From a virus (lineage: Duplodnaviria; Caudoviricetes), in IMG/VR virus record IMGVR_UViG_3300042939_000259, positions 1 through 41,247 of that record: a stretch of 41,247 nt of DNA. One strand, written 5' to 3'. Shown here piece by piece: positions 21,858 to 38,644 of the stretch. Each line of letters opens with the position of its first letter. Within the stretch, counting starts at the first letter, position 1. A program made the translations under genes and the position numbers. Under the pieces are notes generated by a model. It saw only the letters and a program-made list of their open reading frames with translations. It did no database searches and was not told where the DNA came from.

Positions 21858-22318
21858 TGGATTCCCTGACTATTACCGCCGATTCGTTACGTATTGCATC
21901 TGATTCGCTTAACTTTTTTATGAAAGTATTGCCAGAAATTAAACAGCAACTTTTTATTTTAAAGCCGCTTATTATTTGCCTATCATTTTTACTTTTAGTA
22001 GATTTTTTAACAGGCGTTCGAAAAGCAAAGGCATTAAAAGAAAAAATACAATCGCGCGGTTTTAGACGTACCATTTCAAAAATGAATGATTATTGTTTGG
22101 CAATTATTTCAAGTCAAGTTTTTACCTGGATGCTTGACCTTGAATTTACGTTATCTTATTACGTTGCTATGTTTGTTTGTGGCATTGAGCTAAAATCTAT
22201 TTTTGAAAATGTTTCACAGACTACAGGCGTTGACATTATTGGTTACTTTAAAGGCTTTATCCCTAACCCTAAAGATATATTAAAAAAACCTGCAAGCGAT
22301 AAACCTACAGGTGAATAA
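21857..22318 (+). CDS. Holin (Phage_holin_4_1-like)
   Basis: DFLTGVRKA...SRGFRRTISK...ELKSIFEN pattern with TM helices. Confidence 0.8.
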   Translation: MDSLTITADSLRIASDSLNFFMKVLPEIKQQLFILKPLIICLSFLLLVDFLTGVRKAKALKEKIQSRGFRRTISKMNDYCLAIISSQVFTWMLDLEFTLSYYVAMFVCGIELKSIFENVSQTTGVDIIGYFKGFIPNPKDILKKPASDKPTGE

Positions 22319-22341
22319 TTTACTGTTTTGCTCTTTTGTTT

Positions 22342-22524
22342 TCATGTGTTCTCAGGCCGTTGCGTAGTGATATGCAGCGGTTTTTCTGTTTGTGCTAACT
22401 TATGAAAGTTTCTAAGCCATAATTCATTTACTATTATGTAGCCGTTATTATAAAACTTTTTGTTTTCGCCCGCTTCAAATAATTGGCGTTCAAACGTTTC
22501 TTCAAATGTCGGTAAATCTATCAT
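22342..22524 (-). CDS. Hypothetical protein
   Basis: 60 aa, ATGA-coupled. Confidence 0.55.
   Translation of the reverse strand: MIDLPTFEETFERQLFEAGENKKFYNNGYIIVNELWLRNFHKLAQTEKPLHITTQRPENT
22357..22385 (+). terminator. Terminator of the late operon, inside a convergent ORF
   Basis: CCGTTGCGTA-GTGA-TATGCAGCGG 10-bp stem, GNRA loop, T5. Confidence 0.7.
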
Positions 22525-23301: not shown

Positions 23302-23470
23302 GTCCTTTTAGTTTGTTTTCAAGTTCTTCAATTTTATGTAAATATATGTCAATCCTTAGTTCAAGTTCTTCATCATAAGGTTCTTCATTTTGAATCCATA
23401 GCAACGCGTCACAATAGCCTTTTTTGTATTCCAAAATTCGCCTTAATCGGTGTTTTTCTGTTTGTGTCAT
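23294..23470 (-). CDS. Hypothetical protein, 58 aa
   Basis: Read by hand: MTQTEKHRLRRILEYKKGYCDALLW...; fills gap, ATGA overlap with amidase stop. Confidence 0.65.
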   Translation of the reverse strand: MTQTEKHRLRRILEYKKGYCDALLWIQNEEPYDEELELRIDIYLHKIEELENKLKGHD

Positions 23471-24177
23471 ATCTTTAGTTTGCTTGACCAGTTAGCAATG
23501 TTAAAAGCAGGTATTTTAATAGATTCTAAATATTTAGGAACGTCAAAACTTGGACATGCTTTGTTTTGCACTTGGTTATGCCCTGCAATAATTATTTTTG
23601 GGTTATGCTTTACAATATCATGAACGTAATTGTACATTGTCAATAATTGCCCGGGCGTGCGCGTATCTTTAGGCATTCGCATGTCAGCTGTCATGCCACC
23701 AATATAACAAACGTGGCGGGCATTTCTATTTAGTAGTGTTGTCCCTAATACGCCCCAAGTCTGTTCCCATTCGTTAATTAAATTATCTTCATTGTATTTC
23801 CAAATGTTAACAAGTTTGCCGCTTGTTTCAATTACATCAGCATAGCCAGGCTTAGACCATCCGCGGCCGCCTTTTGAAACGGGTAGGGTGTGCATAGCTA
23901 TTATTTGTTCAGCTTTAGCATCGCGAAATTCAGGGCCCGCAGAACAATGCAAAAATAAGGTATGGAATCCATCGGCACAAACAGTATTTGCAACGGTTAA
24001 GGTTTTTGGCCCTGCTATTCCATCGGGAACTAAGTTATAATGTTTTTGAAATTCTATAACATCATTTCGCATTGTTTCATCATAGAATCCATCAATTAAA
24101 CCAGCATAAAAGTCAAGCTGTCTTAATTGCATTTGTAGCCTTACAACGGCTAAAGAATTAGAATTTAGTGTTAGCAT
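23467..24177 (-). CDS. Endolysin: PG-binding domain plus T7-type N-acetylmuramoyl-L-alanine amidase
   Basis: DGFYD...FQ...LVPDGIAGPKT (PG_binding_1); HCSA, GH and KACPSF zinc ligands. Confidence 0.9.
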   Translation of the reverse strand: MLTLNSNSLAVVRLQMQLRQLDFYAGLIDGFYDETMRNDVIEFQKHYNLVPDGIAGPKTLTVANTVCADGFHTLFLHCSAGPEFRDAKAEQIIAMHTLPVSKGGRGWSKPGYADVIETSGKLVNIWKYNEDNLINEWEQTWGVLGTTLLNRNARHVCYIGGMTADMRMPKDTRTPGQLLTMYNYVHDIVKHNPKIIIAGHNQVQNKACPSFDVPKYLESIKIPAFNIANWSSKLKI

Positions 24178-24247
24178 CAAGTTTAATAATTTTAAGTTTT
24201 AGTAATTCAATTTCTTTATTTTTTTTGTTTACCATTTAACCACCTGA

Positions 24248-25192: not shown

Positions 25193-25406
25193 CGTATTTT
25201 GTTTTTAGTGTTAAAGAATGATTATTAGGTTTTAATTTTCCTTTTGTCCATATTTCGCAATCATCGAAAAAAAAGTTTCTTACTGACCCTAATTTATAAA
25301 CTTTAGTTTGACGCGTGCAAATAGCTTTATAATTGCCCGCTGGCAATTGTTCGACTACATACCACTCATCGCCTTTTATTTTATCATGGAAAAATTGGAA
25401 AATCAT
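25146..25406 (-). CDS. Hypothetical protein
   Basis: 86 aa, overlaps both neighbours. Confidence 0.5.
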   Translation of the reverse strand: MIFQFFHDKIKGDEWYVVEQLPAGNYKAICTRQTKVYKLGSVRNFFFDDCEIWTKGKLKPNNHSLTLKTKYDGKPRYTNRSGRKRT

Positions 25407-25905
25407 ATTGCCAAAGGTCGTATTTTTCTATTACAGAAATTAGTATTTCAGCATATTTTTTTTCGGTTGCATATCCGCACTTTTTTAAACCGTGTGCCCA
25501 TGCTTTATAATTTAATCTATTTAGCCGTGTGAGGTGTTTATAACGCTTTGAAGTTAGTAACTTACTATGTGCCCGATATGACCACCACGGCGATTTATAG
25601 ACTTGGAATTTATCGCGCGGTGTATCATCTTTGTAAACTGCATATTTGCCTTTTCCGCTGTGTTTAATACCAAAGTGGTTGTTATGTTTGCGGCTTAGAC
25701 TTGAACGCCCTGCATTGCTTTCTATAATGCCCTGCGCAAGTGTTATGCTAACAGGAATGTTAAATAGCTTAGCTTCGTTTTGCGCTGTCTTTAAAAAGCG
25801 TTTTATGTAGCTATCTATGTGTTTTGGTGCAGGCTGTTTTTTTAGCGCTGGGAATGTTCCCGATGTAAATAAAATTACTGCTAAGATTAAAAGTATTGTT
25901 TTCAT
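25384..25905 (-). CDS. GH73 glucosaminidase (FlgJ-like) with signal peptide
   Basis: SITLAQGIIES, NNHFGIK, GYAT..KYA motifs; hydrophobic N-terminus. Confidence 0.9.
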   Translation of the reverse strand: MKTILLILAVILFTSGTFPALKKQPAPKHIDSYIKRFLKTAQNEAKLFNIPVSITLAQGIIESNAGRSSLSRKHNNHFGIKHSGKGKYAVYKDDTPRDKFQVYKSPWWSYRAHSKLLTSKRYKHLTRLNRLNYKAWAHGLKKCGYATEKKYAEILISVIEKYDLWQYDFPIFP

Positions 25906-25930: not shown

Positions 25931-26035
25931 TAGTCCTGACAGGATTCGAACCTGTATGCCTCACCTTGCAGTTTAGTTGCTAACTGATAGTTATAGGGGT
26001 CACTATCCTTGCGTCTACCATTCCGCCACAGGACT
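25931..26035 (-). ncRNA. tRNA-like RNA (Leu-type D arm, no canonical anticodon arm)
   Basis: AGTCCTG/CAGGACT acceptor, GCG-GAATGGTAGA-CGC D arm, ACAGG-TTCGAAT-CCTGT T arm, discriminator A; 55-nt atypical middle. Confidence 0.8.
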
Positions 26036-30486: not shown

Positions 30487-30767
30487 ATTTTCTTTGTTTT
30501 AGGTGAACAACCAAGCCAAAAACTAAATTGGAACGCTTTAGCTCTGTGGCCTTTAATTTTATACTTTGCTATTGTTTCCTGCAAAATGTTTTCCATTACA
30601 TCATGCTCGCATTGGTATTCTAAAAACTTTATAACTTTTTCGCCGCGCTCGTTTATTTCGGCATTTGCTACAAGTTCATCGAAATCAGCAGGCGGTTCGC
30701 TAACAGCATAAACGCGTCTGTAAATTTCTAAAAGAATTTCGTAATCTGTTAATTTTTTCTTTGGCAT
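30483..30767 (-). CDS. Hypothetical protein
   Basis: 94 aa, C-terminal LGCSP. Confidence 0.7.
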   Translation of the reverse strand: MPKKKLTDYEILLEIYRRVYAVSEPPADFDELVANAEINERGEKVIKFLEYQCEHDVMENILQETIAKYKIKGHRAKAFQFSFWLGCSPKTKKI

Positions 30768-31216
30768 TGTTCAAATTTTTTAAGGTAATTTAATGTACTT
30801 TGTTTTTTATGTCCATTGGGTCCACCATTCCACATACGCGCAAGTTCACGGTAATTAGGATATTTACCGTACTTTTGTGCATAGGTGTAACAATGAACGC
30901 CCATAGCTGCCCAAAATACGTGTTCAGATTTAACTGAATCAAACATATCTTTGTGCTGATAATTTAGTAGGTCTTCAAGGCCCGAACCTTTAACGCAAAC
31001 CGCGTGCATCTGATACCTACCATAAGCGCGGCCGCTATCACCTATTAAACTATCGGTGTTTAACGTTTCAATATGTCCGATAGCATTTATAAAATCGCTG
31101 TCAGTATCGCAGGTGTCGCGGGTTATGTAAACGGTTTTAATGATAACTTCGGGTTTCGGCTTATTGCAGCCAAATAAAACGGCTACTAAAATAATAAATC
31201 CTGTTAATTGTTTCAT
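30749..31216 (-). CDS. Lysozyme-like/lytic transglycosylase lipoprotein
   Basis: Lipobox LFGC (Cys17 from ATG 31216); IET...GDSGRAYGRYQM...WNGGP. Confidence 0.75.
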   Translation of the reverse strand: MKQLTGFIILVAVLFGCNKPKPEVIIKTVYITRDTCDTDSDFINAIGHIETLNTDSLIGDSGRAYGRYQMHAVCVKGSGLEDLLNYQHKDMFDSVKSEHVFWAAMGVHCYTYAQKYGKYPNYRELARMWNGGPNGHKKQSTLNYLKKFEQCQRKN

Positions 31217-31234: not shown

Positions 31235-31316
31235 TTCCTGTGGCATCGGATTGAACGACGCTTAAGACCTGAACTTTTAAAAAAGTCTTGTTTTTCGCCA
31301 CATAAACTACACAGGA
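31235..31316 (-). ncRNA. Second tRNA-like RNA (aberrant anticodon loop)
   Basis: TCCTGTG/CACAGGA acceptor, TA, GTTT/AAAC D stem with GG loop, AAGAC/GTCTT stem with 16-nt loop, GCGTCG-TTCAATC-CGATGC T arm. Confidence 0.7.
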
Positions 31317-31327
31317 GGTAAGGTTAA

Positions 31328-33829
31328 TTAAATACAATCAAATAAAGTAGGTACATTGATTTTATATTCAATACTTTTAAGGTAGTATAAACCATCATCG
31401 TAATATTCAGGATTTAATTCAACTGATATACATTTACGTTCCATTTCTAAACATTTATAAGCAGTTGTAAATAAACCACCGAAAGGGTCACAAACTAAAT
31501 CTCCTTTCATTGTAAATCTATTTAAAAGCCTAACTACTATGTCAAATTGAAGCGGGCAAATATGTTTTTCTTTTTTTCTGTTTGCTTGATTAGCATTTAA
31601 AGTAGCCATTCTATTAACATCTGTCCAAACATCCTCGCTCGTACTATGAACGGGCAAAGTCATAAATAAAGAACTTAACTTATTTTGATTTTCTAAGTCT
31701 TCACATGCTTTTAAATGTTCCTGAAAACTATAAACATTTGATTTGTCATGCTTTTTCCAATGCTTACATATTTTTTCGACATCCATTTGCTTTAATTCAT
31801 TATAACTTAAAAATCTATTACCATCGCTTTTCCAATAAGCATGAGCATCTAATTGCCAGTTTGCGCGGGTATATTCATCTTTTGTCTTTGTACATGGTTC
31901 ATCTGCATAAGCATTATCCATTGAAGATGGAGCTTTTCTAAATAATAAAACATACTCAGGCAAACCAACGCCCATTTTAGTAGCGTCTTTGCATTGTTCA
32001 GTCCATCCCAATCTGTAAGTCTGGTTATTTTCTCGAACTACATCGGTTGTTACTGTAATTTTACCAATTAAATAAAAACCGTGCTTTTGAAAATGCGCTA
32101 CCGTTTTGCCGCTAAAATCATCTATTGTTGTAAATTTAGTTCCATTCTGATAACTATAACGAATCCTATCTTTAACGTGTATTGCTGCAATTTTACCAGG
32201 CTTTAAACATCTTAATAAATTAGGTGTTAAATAGTCCATTTGTTTAAAAAATTCATCATTGCCATGATTATGACCCATGTCATTATAATTATCTGAGTAT
32301 TCGTAATGGTCGCCGAATGGAATAGAAGTTAATATCATATCATAAATATTACTTTCAATTTCATTATGCATCATGACAGTATCTTCATTATATACTGTGG
32401 CGTTGCCAATTTGAGCAGTTCGTCTGTTGTTAAAAATTTGTCTTTTCATGTCGCTTTTAATTTTATCTGTGTTTAATCCGTATTCTCTTACTAAGTTTAT
32501 CATTTCAGTTTGTAATTCAATATGCTTTACCCATTTTTCTTTTAATGCTTTTAATACATCCTGTTCATTTTGAGTAAAAATAGCATAGACATTGACTTCA
32601 TTTTCTTGTTTAAATCTGTAACATCTATGTATAGACTGTATAAAATCATTAAACTTATAATCAATACCGCAAAAAATCATATTATGGCAGCTGTGTTGAA
32701 AATTACATCCTGAGCCTGCTATTTTTGGTTTTGTGCTTAATATTTGATATTTGTTATGTTTAAAGTCTATAAGTAGCTGTTCTTTTTCGCTATTATCCTG
32801 TGAACCAAAAACAGATTTTATATTATACTCTTTAAATGTTCTATTCAATTCTTGGCGCTCAGCTTCTAAATGGTGCCATAAAATCCAATTCTTATCTGAT
32901 TCGTTTTTTACAATTTCGTAGGCTTTTTTAATTCTTAAATTTATTGATTCTGATTTTTCGCGGCTTACATCAATAAGACTTTTTGTAGTATCTTTAAAAA
33001 TTACTAATTCTCCTTTTTTATTATAAATTTCTCCATCTGTATTATTTTGCACTAATACTTCAATGAAATTTAATTTAGGCAATAAATAACCAGTATCATT
33101 ATACCCTAAATCTGAAGGCTTATTTATAAAAACCGCCCACGTAGAAACCCATTTCCAGAATTCCTCTTTTTTATTTGGATATAAAGTTAAGTGACCTGCT
33201 TTTGTGCTATCACGTTGGAAAAATCTTGTTAAAGCATGACCACGGTCAATTACACTAAGATAATCAGCATAATTTAATATCTCTATAAAATCATTTGGCG
33301 TTGGAGTTGCAGTAGCTACAAATCTATAATTAACATTTCTAAAGTGATTTAAAACATAATTTGTAGTTTCTGTTTTTAAGTTTCTAAGTATTGATGCTTC
33401 ATCAAATGATACGCCGCCAAATAATTCAGCTGTTACATCGCCTTTTCTAATACGTTCATAATTTGTTACATAAATTATATCAGAATTTACAGTATCAACA
33501 ATATCAGAATCAGTAATATATTTTATTGATTTTTCAGGATATAAAAATTCTAAATCATCTCTAAATTCTCCTACTACGCCAAGTGGCATAACAATTAAAA
33601 AAGGCTTTTGAGTTATTTGAGAAACCTGTACAGCTATTTCAAGTTGCATCATTGTTTTACCTAATCCAAAACTTGCAAATATAGCACGCCTGCCGCCTGA
33701 TATAGCCCAATGTACTATATCGCGTTGATGTGGCAATAATTTAGGTGATAGCGTTTTAATGTCAATCTCAGTTCCATAGTCCTGAGCTATCACAATTTTC
33801 TTTTCTAAAAATTCTAAATAGTTTGTCAT
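31328..33829 (-). CDS. SF2 (SNF2-like) helicase fused to N4/N6 DNA methyltransferase
   Basis: GLGKT, DEAS, TATP, QSIHRCYR; then TSIPF, HICP, DPFGG in beta-class order. Confidence 0.85.
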   Translation of the reverse strand: MTNYLEFLEKKIVIAQDYGTEIDIKTLSPKLLPHQRDIVHWAISGGRRAIFASFGLGKTMMQLEIAVQVSQITQKPFLIVMPLGVVGEFRDDLEFLYPEKSIKYITDSDIVDTVNSDIIYVTNYERIRKGDVTAELFGGVSFDEASILRNLKTETTNYVLNHFRNVNYRFVATATPTPNDFIEILNYADYLSVIDRGHALTRFFQRDSTKAGHLTLYPNKKEEFWKWVSTWAVFINKPSDLGYNDTGYLLPKLNFIEVLVQNNTDGEIYNKKGELVIFKDTTKSLIDVSREKSESINLRIKKAYEIVKNESDKNWILWHHLEAERQELNRTFKEYNIKSVFGSQDNSEKEQLLIDFKHNKYQILSTKPKIAGSGCNFQHSCHNMIFCGIDYKFNDFIQSIHRCYRFKQENEVNVYAIFTQNEQDVLKALKEKWVKHIELQTEMINLVREYGLNTDKIKSDMKRQIFNNRRTAQIGNATVYNEDTVMMHNEIESNIYDMILTSIPFGDHYEYSDNYNDMGHNHGNDEFFKQMDYLTPNLLRCLKPGKIAAIHVKDRIRYSYQNGTKFTTIDDFSGKTVAHFQKHGFYLIGKITVTTDVVRENNQTYRLGWTEQCKDATKMGVGLPEYVLLFRKAPSSMDNAYADEPCTKTKDEYTRANWQLDAHAYWKSDGNRFLSYNELKQMDVEKICKHWKKHDKSNVYSFQEHLKACEDLENQNKLSSLFMTLPVHSTSEDVWTDVNRMATLNANQANRKKEKHICPLQFDIVVRLLNRFTMKGDLVCDPFGGLFTTAYKCLEMERKCISVELNPEYYDDGLYYLKSIEYKINVPTLFDCI

Positions 33830-33831
33830 TT

Positions 33832-35343
33832 TCAATGTTTTTTAGTTTTATAAAATTCGTTCCATTTTCTTAATACAGCAGCTTTTAAGTCATCGCGGTT
33901 TATAGCGTTCAATCCATGTTTTTTATTTATGTATTCAACTGTTCCCGATTCTTTTAAAACCCTACTTTCAAATACAAAATAAACCCATTTATCTTTATGT
34001 CCGCGCTGAATTTTTAACTGCCATAAGTCTTCAAGTGTTCGGCTTTTTGCCTGCTCAGTACGTTTCGCTTTCAATAGTTCGTCAAGTGTAGTTTCATCTT
34101 TTACTGCAACGCCTGCAACCTGTTCAATTTCGCTTACCTTTAAAGGTTCAACAAAACCACAGTAAGGACATGCAACGTGTGTTTTTTCATAAGTCCTAAA
34201 GCATTCTGTACAGTCTTTGTATTCATTATCAATATGTTCATCTGTATCTTTTCGTTTTCGCTTTTGCATCCCTTCTAATGTCCATTCCCGTGTCATTAGT
34301 GGATGCCCGTGTAGTTTTTGATTGCCAACGTGGTCAAGTATTAAACAGCGTTCTTTGCCTTCCATCGGTCTTAATCCGCGCCCTACAATCTGTAAATATA
34401 AACTTAGTGACATAGTGCGGCGTAACATTCCTACAACTGATACCGCTGGTATATCTGTGCCTTCGCTTATAAGGTCACAAAACGTTAGAATCTGAATATC
34501 GCGAATCGCGAACCGCGATATAATATTTTTAACTTCATTTTCATCAAAAGTTCCATTTATAGAAACCGCTTTAAAACCTGCTTCATTAAATGCGGCTGCT
34601 ACATTATCAGCATGTTTAATATTTACGCATGAATATATTGCAGGTTCGCCCGCTGCTAATCGTTTATATTCCTCAACAGCATTTCCTGTTATCGCAGGTT
34701 TGTCCATTTCTTTAAACAAGTCATCAGCTTTATATTCGCCGTTTTTATCCTTCTTAATCTTAGTAAAATCAGCCAACGGTTTGAAGTTGTAATATTCAGG
34801 CATCACTAGGTTACCAATTTTAACCAACTCAGCAGGTAACGGGCCTAAAACTAAATCAGAAAACACATCGCCTAAGCCTTGACCATCGCCGCGCCACGGT
34901 GTAGCAGTAACGCCCAAAACATAAACAGAATCCGCGTAAAAATCTAAAATATCCTTCCATGTTCCCGCGTTTGCATGGTGTGCTTCATCAATAATAAGTA
35001 AGTCAGGTTGTGGTACTTCATTTAACCGATTCTTTAAACTTTGAACGCTGCACACTTGCGCAGGTAAATAATACTGTTTAGGTCTATTGCCTGCTATAAA
35101 TCCATGCTTTAAACCGTATCGCCTGCAACGTTCCGAAATCTGATTTACAAGGTTTTTTTTATGCACTAAGAAATAAACTCGCTTACCTTTTCCGATTGCT
35201 TCTAATGCCATATAAATAAACGTTTCAGTTTTGCCGCCGCCTGTTGGTAATACAAATAGAACTTTTTTGTTACCGCTTTTATAGCTCTCTCTTATGTCGC
35301 TTACGCTTTTCGATTGATATGGCCGTAGCTGTATTGTGTTCAT
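33832..35343 (-). CDS. DEAH-box SF2 helicase with C-terminal Zn ribbon (RadD/YejH-like)
   Basis: PTGGGKT, DEAHH, TATP, QIVGRGLR, CTEC...CPYC. Confidence 0.9.
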   Translation of the reverse strand: MNTIQLRPYQSKSVSDIRESYKSGNKKVLFVLPTGGGKTETFIYMALEAIGKGKRVYFLVHKKNLVNQISERCRRYGLKHGFIAGNRPKQYYLPAQVCSVQSLKNRLNEVPQPDLLIIDEAHHANAGTWKDILDFYADSVYVLGVTATPWRGDGQGLGDVFSDLVLGPLPAELVKIGNLVMPEYYNFKPLADFTKIKKDKNGEYKADDLFKEMDKPAITGNAVEEYKRLAAGEPAIYSCVNIKHADNVAAAFNEAGFKAVSINGTFDENEVKNIISRFAIRDIQILTFCDLISEGTDIPAVSVVGMLRRTMSLSLYLQIVGRGLRPMEGKERCLILDHVGNQKLHGHPLMTREWTLEGMQKRKRKDTDEHIDNEYKDCTECFRTYEKTHVACPYCGFVEPLKVSEIEQVAGVAVKDETTLDELLKAKRTEQAKSRTLEDLWQLKIQRGHKDKWVYFVFESRVLKESGTVEYINKKHGLNAINRDDLKAAVLRKWNEFYKTKKH

Positions 35344-38540: not shown

Positions 38541-38644
38541 ATAGATATAGTCCTAAAACGAATTTAAACGGCATTTTAAGGCATTTTTATATTAAAGTGG
38601 TGTATAGATATCAAAACTTATTAAAAGTTGCTTAAAACGAAAAT

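Follow-up and report, generated by a model that had tools for sequence, protein, structure and literature searches.

The window analysed here is the whole of the 41,247-nucleotide IMG/VR virus record IMGVR_UViG_3300042939_000259 (Caudoviricetes), a 95%-complete record that encodes a terminase, a holin, a primase, helicases and a methyltransferase. Its GenBank phage relatives are less than 35% identical. A Shine-Dalgarno motif was found at none of the 37 long ORFs of the window, which presumably reflects a Bacteroidota host, and the host is inferred to be Bacteroidota-like. Host searches returned no match to the terminase in 401 Bacteroidota genomes and none to the primase in 301 genomes of one order.

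The features surrounding the tRNA-shaped element are collected in Table 1. The element begins 11 nt past the methyltransferase stop codon (31328) and ends 18 nt ahead of the lipoprotein ATG (31216), occupying 82 of the 111 nt between the two genes, as the preliminary description had it when it stated that the gap is almost filled. The downstream lipoprotein has no Pfam hit; its ESM Atlas neighbours carry SLT/destabilase annotations in a minority of members, and its match to a lysozyme in the PDB is weak (E 0.0015). Three predicted cell-wall hydrolase genes (23467–24180, 25384–25905 and 30749–31216, minus strand) are located on the replication strand away from the holin gene, two of them directly after a tRNA-like element. 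At the convergence of the two operons (21962–22400), weak, sub-threshold Rfam matches, namely a tmRNA fragment (18.9 bits), RT-18 and BTnc005, cluster around terminator-like hairpins. The slot between the helicase and lipoprotein genes (31328–33835; loci L001–L037) is an accessory hotspot that holds several unrelated DNA methyltransferases, and also an HNH endonuclease pair and a PAPS-reductase/DUF3440 and ParB pair. In this replication-operon slot the element accompanies DNA methyltransferases and PAPS-reductase/ParB genes, either singly or in tandem. The neighbourhood carries little weight as evidence because the methyltransferase-rich slot occurs equally in relatives that have no element.

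Table 1 Features at and around the tRNA-shaped element, with the evidence for each.
Feature	Position	Strand	Evidence
Helicase-domain and N6/N4 DNA methyltransferase, 835 aa, upstream, accessory slot	31328..33835	-	Pfam PF01555, PF00271
Predicted lipoprotein, 155 aa, probably lysozyme-like, downstream	30749..31216	-	Lipobox-like LFGC in translation
tRNA-shaped element, class A anticodon arm, 82 nt	31235..31316	-	ARAGORN; family alignment, pair counts
Acceptor stem 5' strand, positions 1–7	31310..31316	-	Double-sided changes in 4/7 pairs; C2-G, U4-A and G7-C invariant
D arm: 4-bp stem, 10-nt loop with G18-G19, near-invariant	31290..31307	-	Alignment; also in diverged L304
Anticodon-position arm: 5–6-bp stem, 14–16-nt U/A-rich loop, exchangeable module	31264..31289	-	Double-sided changes in 3/5 pairs
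AA linker, 2 nt, replacing the variable region, invariant	31262..31263	-	Alignment and L304
T arm: 6-bp stem, loop TTCAATC	31243..31261	-	Every change keeps pairing; two double-sided changes in L304
Acceptor stem 3' strand and discriminator; CCA not encoded	31235..31242	-	Family discriminator A 25, T 21, C 2
tRNA-like element, other scaffold, separate family	25931..26035	-	Rfam tRNA 40.1 bits

The element was located by ARAGORN and by folding, and runs from 31316 to 31235. Every part listed in the preliminary description is present: four paired stems, U8-A9, GG in the D loop, GTTCAA and a 6-bp T stem. The acceptor stem comprises 7 bp and is followed by a discriminator A; U8, the D-loop G18G19 and a T loop of the form UUCRA are those of a cloverleaf. 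The described 2-nt variable region corresponds to the AA linker and does not change in the family. The described 16-nt anticodon loop, in turn, applies only to a 5-bp drawing of the stem: in 42/48 family members a U-G or U-A pair can be added as the sixth, which leaves 14 nt, and the ViennaRNA drawing of the window's element leaves 12 nt. ARAGORN's alternative register has a 5-bp stem, a 6-nt loop and a long variable region, and an alternative drawing of the T branch requires an extra C between the T stem and the acceptor stem. The missing CCA, correctly pointed out earlier, is unremarkable, as it is likewise absent from 50/57 tRNAs called in two Bacteroidota genomes. The cloverleaf of the window's element lies 0.4–0.6 kcal/mol above the minimum-energy fold; the gap between cloverleaf and best fold has a median of 1.95 kcal/mol across the family and is 1 kcal/mol or less in only 16/48 members. 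Folding of the plus strand (z −1.36) was discarded because the element is on the other strand.

ARAGORN reports the element as tRNA-??? with a score of 102.5 and makes no call in 200 simulated windows of matching dinucleotide composition; at default settings it calls the element in 2/46 loci. The low-threshold search with the Rfam tRNA model (RF00005) that had been suggested gave no match even at E ≤ 10 and none above the gathering threshold, and six family loci were without any Rfam match at E ≤ 5, Y-RNA models included. Thus, such RNAs are probably under-counted.

Related elements were collected from viral and metagenome contigs and comprise 48 distinct full-length versions, drawn from 96 occurrences, some of which are the same contigs retrieved more than once, together with one diverged member. 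Of the loci found by pattern scans, 30 are viral and 26 are from metagenomes. With the downstream protein as the query, so that loci are chosen regardless of element presence, 37 loci were found; the element is present in 12, directly upstream of the downstream gene in 11 and one gene further up in the other, and is absent from 25, including 4 of the 6 near-complete records found without bias. Only 11 of the 48 distinct sequences come from this unbiased neighbour-gene search, and the conservation of the D and T arms is partly inherent in the search patterns. Scans with the D arm alone and with the T arm alone each returned the same 30 viral records and two others; the additional records were one diverged member pair and two chance matches, with no half elements. 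A wider viral pattern returned 36 loci, 32 of them known and 4 due to chance. All 102 matches to the pattern in GTDB were chance matches, and among 151 sampled Bacteroidota genomes there was no true match, the one weak match not being a tRNA. No sequence match was present among 50,697 GenBank phage records. The element occurs in phages with 80–95% protein identity to the window, in a 55% group and in groups that share 1–4 proteins with it, and the metagenome runs that contain it are mostly from freshwater or lakes. A search of mainly non-subscription literature returned no description of this family. These sequences constitute a small, real and apparently undescribed family of tRNA mimics in phages, in which one arm is modular.

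The diverged member (L304:1491–1600, plus strand, and L306) shares the D arm of the family; its acceptor stem is longer and bulged, and its variable arm, ~45 nt long, is branched. It is placed directly 3' of a glucosaminidase gene, a gene family that is flanked in the window by the other scaffold. A third tRNA-like element, with acceptor and T stems of its own and an irregular core, is found in L084 (T loop near 1233, plus strand), ~0.9 kb from a family member.

The alignment of the 48 sequences shows that a tRNA fold without an anticodon is under selection. Of the 1056 stem cells, 98.0% pair, versus 91.9% in shuffled and 39–52% in slid controls. Cells with double-sided changes number 84 versus 28 in shuffles, where changes are tallied per sequence rather than per event and cells are not independent; the number of covarying pairs (7) is not above shuffles (92/500). 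Such compensatory changes, which the preliminary description proposed to look for in relatives, were found in the acceptor and anticodon-position stems and, in L304, in the 6-bp T stem. All changes in the T stem of the 48 sequences preserve pairing. The D stem is invariant and its pairing is therefore without covariation support. Fixed throughout are U8-A9, the D arm, the first two A-U pairs of the stem that follows, the AA linker and the T loop, whereas pairs 1:72, 3:70, 5:68 and 6:67 and the discriminator are free to vary. The T stem has 6 bp in 48/48 members and in L304, in place of the 7/5 acceptor-T branch of canonical tRNAs, and since pair 1:72 is unpaired in 15/48 members the branch may be either 7/6 or 6/6. 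A rod fold proposed by RNAalifold, in which the D loop pairs with the T arm, was rejected: it draws on near-invariant columns, and L304 breaks the rod and keeps the T stem. None of the 37 relatives carries a canonical tRNA at the site, where a tRNA-Lys had been named in the preliminary description as contrary evidence.

The selected fold bears directly on whether the element is a neutral relic, that is, a decayed tRNA or an attachment-site remnant hitchhiking in a recombination hotspot. Its absence from so many relatives, near-complete records included, the lack of any protein gene that tracks it and a few recombinant copies with mismatched acceptor pairs would all suit a relic. However, compensatory changes are found in three stems, and a covariance model run over 50 whole records detected no decayed or half copies, giving 31 strong matches followed by 3 at chance level (15–18 bits); in the whole-record run the 12/37 loci were confirmed and the element was either intact or wholly absent. 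The match to host tRNAs is also poor, with at best 27/54 arm positions shared with any of 57 tRNAs of two stand-in Bacteroidota genomes; the GTDB and Bacteroidota scans described above found no true copy. The window has no integrase among its 52 annotated ORFs, and the comparison with the two stand-in genomes gave no identity to the 3' part of a tRNA such as an attP site or tRNA gene fragment would show. A relic origin is thus very unlikely.

The anticodon-position arm is the part in which family members differ. A 5-bp stem with a 7-nt loop can be formed by 0/48 sequences, which, together with the compensatory changes, bears out the earlier proposal of a selected RNA class that cannot present a normal anticodon. 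As the code-reading arm of the tRNA shape is exchanged for other loops, the element is predicted not to read codons. The arms fall into three classes: class A (16 sequences) with a 16-nt loop, class B (21 sequences) with a 20–25-nt loop and class C (11 sequences) with a 30–34-nt loop; the acceptor variants combined with them number 4, 7 and 5, respectively. The combination of each arm class with 4–7 acceptor variants suggests that arms are exchanged by recombination through the constant arms. In three copies (L001:5894–5989; L089:1582–1670, minus strand; L102:492–587, minus strand) the 5' acceptor strand of one variant is combined with the 3' strand of another, so that the two are mismatched; these copies are direct signs of crossover within the element. 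Eight distinct tandem doublets, separated by a 15-nt A/U spacer, were found, and 7/8 pair two different arm classes.

ARAGORN's register raises the question of a recoding tRNA, in which the class A arm would refold into a 5-bp stem and 6-nt loop and serve in frameshifting or suppression, or else as near-Lys anticodon bait for anticodon nucleases. The register can be formed by all 16 class A sequences, and the U-rich loop of the window's element resembles a Lys anticodon loop. Yet 0/21 class B sequences form it and only 5/11 class C sequences form an 8-nt variant; it is 1.7–1.8 kcal/mol less stable in 15/16 class A sequences, and 12/16 class A loops have TATTAA rather than TTTTAA. The discriminator and pair 1:72 vary, leaving no constant aminoacylation identity, and the acceptor-T branch is 7/6, not 7/5. 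A decoding or bait function of this kind is therefore most improbable. A tRNA intron at 37/38 and a stop-codon anticodon concealed near the 3' side of the loop were likewise rejected, as the register changes between classes and class B lacks a U33 equivalent.

The element is accessory and mobile between operon junctions. Identical flanks are seen both in its presence and in its absence, and the genes that precede it include helicase, methyltransferase, gp157, ParB-like and other genes, so that several junctions are occupied. Several contigs of relatives from lake metagenomes agree with the window across the element, with divergence setting in at the element's ends. On the tree of the neighbour gene, element presence requires 10 changes versus 10.9 when shuffled and is thus not clustered. 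No protein gene tracks the element, the best candidate being present in 4/11 positive and 0/6 negative genome sets.

The placement of the element is also what would be expected of a cis-acting processing signal, a bacterial 't-element' at which RNase P and RNase Z/E cut the replication transcript and from which the excised RNA is a by-product. Such a signal would set mRNA ends and uncouple accessory from downstream genes. In most cases the distance from the preceding stop codon is 0–28 nt, with 113 and 148 nt as exceptions, and that to the following ATG is 16–44 nt; a Bacteroidota-type −7 promoter motif is present in 0/48 of the 80-nt upstream regions, and promoter and terminator scans gave nothing above chance beside the window's element. 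The invariant D/T elbow, the acceptor-T helix of 12–13 bp and the free anticodon arm are suited to processing enzymes, and t-elements provide a precedent (PMC1920247; PMC5499578). However, the same flanking genes manage without the element, and the junctions that it occupies are unrelated. Directly after 3/48 copies there is a terminator-like hairpin and not a gene, which leaves nothing to uncouple. Doublets would be redundant for cutting and nonetheless contain two different arms in 7/8 cases, and the arms form conserved classes rather than drifting freely. A role confined to processing is the main rival to the reading preferred below and is on balance somewhat unlikely.

A constant scaffold with a swappable, partly single-stranded arm would also suit an antisense or guide RNA in the style of the C4 RNAs of P1/P7 and the CI RNA of P4, with the arm pairing to a host or competing-phage RNA; C4 and CI are substrates of RNase P as well (PMC5499578). 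In tests that cover the phage genomes, complements of the loops occur in the own genome at chance level (2/28 tests with p < 0.05, at 0.035 and 0.045). The best complement, found in the terminase small-subunit leader, is also present in genomes without the element, is in the mRNA sense and does not covary with the window's loop. Furthermore, the loops are A/U-rich and recur in merely three classes, and C4 and CI are described as having no T loop (PMC5499578), whereas the family keeps one. An antisense role is thus quite unlikely. The same leader (~38618–38635, plus strand) shares 11–12 nt with the commonest class A loop, probably by chance.

The reading that we tentatively prefer, with a probability of about 0.4, is that the element is a host-processed, uncharged tRNA mimic that acts in trans as a decoy for a host tRNA-binding factor. 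The element would be transcribed within the replication operon of the phage, excised by host RNase P and trimmed at its 3' end. In one metatranscriptome, a 180-nt contig of depth 2.7 extends past both ends of the element and represents either a precursor transcript or DNA; in RNA run X24 the share of words is only 0.05, and DNA carry-over is possible. The released RNA would probably not be aminoacylated, because there is no constant discriminator or 1:72, 3:70 or 5:68 pair. This uncharged look-alike may then occupy a host defence or stress factor that binds tRNA, with the arm classes tuning or diversifying what is bound. Since the elbow is fixed, the factor would be expected to recognize the D/T corner or the top half of tRNA. 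The mixed-arm doublets, the terminator-adjacent copies and the indifference to flanking genes favour an RNA acting in trans.

Several points count against the decoy. The combination of a constant elbow and an unconstrained anticodon arm would equally be expected of a pure RNase P signal. Toxins that read the acceptor stem, such as FaRel2, use pairs 1, 2, 4 and 5, and two of these, pairs 1 and 5, vary in the family. Host defences that target tRNA are established (PMC11464382; bioRxiv 10.1101/2024.07.05.602228; PMC13728456). The anticodon nucleases PrrC, RloC and PARIS, which the preliminary description had put forward as the enzymes to be decoyed, are weakened as candidates: AriB recognizes the anticodon stem-loop (PMC11464382), the part that is not conserved here. 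A more elaborate form of the decoy, in which recombining arms are stacked on the fixed 7/6 elbow and each class blocks a different immune factor that senses or attacks host tRNAs, is unlikely. If true, it would be an RNA counterpart of protein sponges.

The tRNA-like element at 25931–26035 had been grouped with the present one as two scaffolds altered in the same arm, but the grouping does not hold up well. That element is a member of a separate family, whose D arm is called tRNA-Leu-like for its likeness to Leu genes and in which the acceptor, D and T arms are constant and the core is different in nearly every copy, giving overall lengths of 72–134 nt. Copies occur in the tRNA clusters of 80–282-kb phages, where ARAGORN assigns anticodons to some. 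The second scaffold is present in 4/11 element-positive and 0/7 element-negative genome sets, an overlap that is suggestive only, with too few sets to link the two. Relatives of the second scaffold were seen at L057:3192–3307 (minus strand), L072:346–437 (plus strand), L101:2268–2365 (plus strand) and L206–L217; several copies are side by side in the tRNA clusters of L209 and L213, and G005 has two.

The phage counter-measures to tRNA-targeting immunity described in PMC11464382, PMC10264068 and PMC13728456 are resistant or additional functional tRNAs. If the element is indeed a tRNA mimic that is under selection, does not decode and exchanges its arm, it would stand for a different strategy and would amount to a naturally occurring tRNA display scaffold. 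The more ordinary alternative would be a phage t-element by which an operon is punctuated with the help of host RNase P. The natural pairs of phages with and without the element and the three arm classes make the question testable.

Phages T4 and T5 encode stable tRNA-like RNAs that do not decode. The family is likewise phage-encoded and predicted not to decode, and has no sequence match in the GenBank phage records mentioned above. Nuclease-resistant phage tRNAs, such as the tRNA-Lys of T5 described in its role against PARIS, are also tRNA-shaped phage RNAs with an altered anticodon arm that meet a tRNA-targeting defence; they are, however, functional decoders that replace the lost host tRNA (PMC11464382, PMC10264068), whereas the family has no canonical anticodon loop. 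Allo-tRNAs and irregular tRNA polycistrons resemble it in a branch other than 7/5, some being found in phages and some being inactive near toxin-antitoxin genes, but have 8/4 or 9/3 branches and named anticodons, and several decode in E. coli (PMC5389517). Among the irregular tRNAs of PMC5389517 that were covered, no 7/6 form was seen. The branch of the phage family is 7/6, or 6/6 if its end is frayed, rather than 8/4 or 9/3, and the anticodon loop is missing.

The C4 and CI RNAs pair with targets on the phage's own transcript. Like the family, for which this is a prediction, they are small phage RNAs processed from a longer transcript by host RNase P (PMC5499578); they are described there as having no equivalent of the T loop, whereas the family has one, without an Rfam match. 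By the features tested, the element appears to be neither a canonical tRNA, nor an 8/4 or 9/3 allo-tRNA, nor a C4/CI RNA.

Closer parallels are found in two other systems. The t-elements of plant mitochondria are described as tRNA-like folds that retain the T loop and acceptor stem and can dispense with the anticodon arm (PMC1920247, PMC5499578); they are embedded beside genes and are probable substrates of RNase P and RNase Z, as is predicted for the phage family, which has the same tRNA-like fold with a T loop adjoining mRNA. They differ in being degenerate tRNAs at the ends of mRNAs in plant mitochondria (PMC1920247, PMC5499578), whereas the phage family has a near-invariant full D arm, arm classes, doublets and mobility between junctions. 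Bacterial and phage Y RNAs of the YrlA type are also non-coding, mimic the D arm, T arm and acceptor stem, and occur in phages, but are described as encoded beside Ro60 (PMC4201824). The TROVE domain of Ro60 was found neither in the window (0/1) nor in other records (0/5), with the control positive in 2/14 genomes. In the phage family, in contrast to Y RNAs, the acceptor stem is built from the two ends of the RNA, as it is in a true tRNA. Judged by these comparisons, the element would in its mode of action be nearest to a t-element or to the part of YrlA that mimics tRNA.
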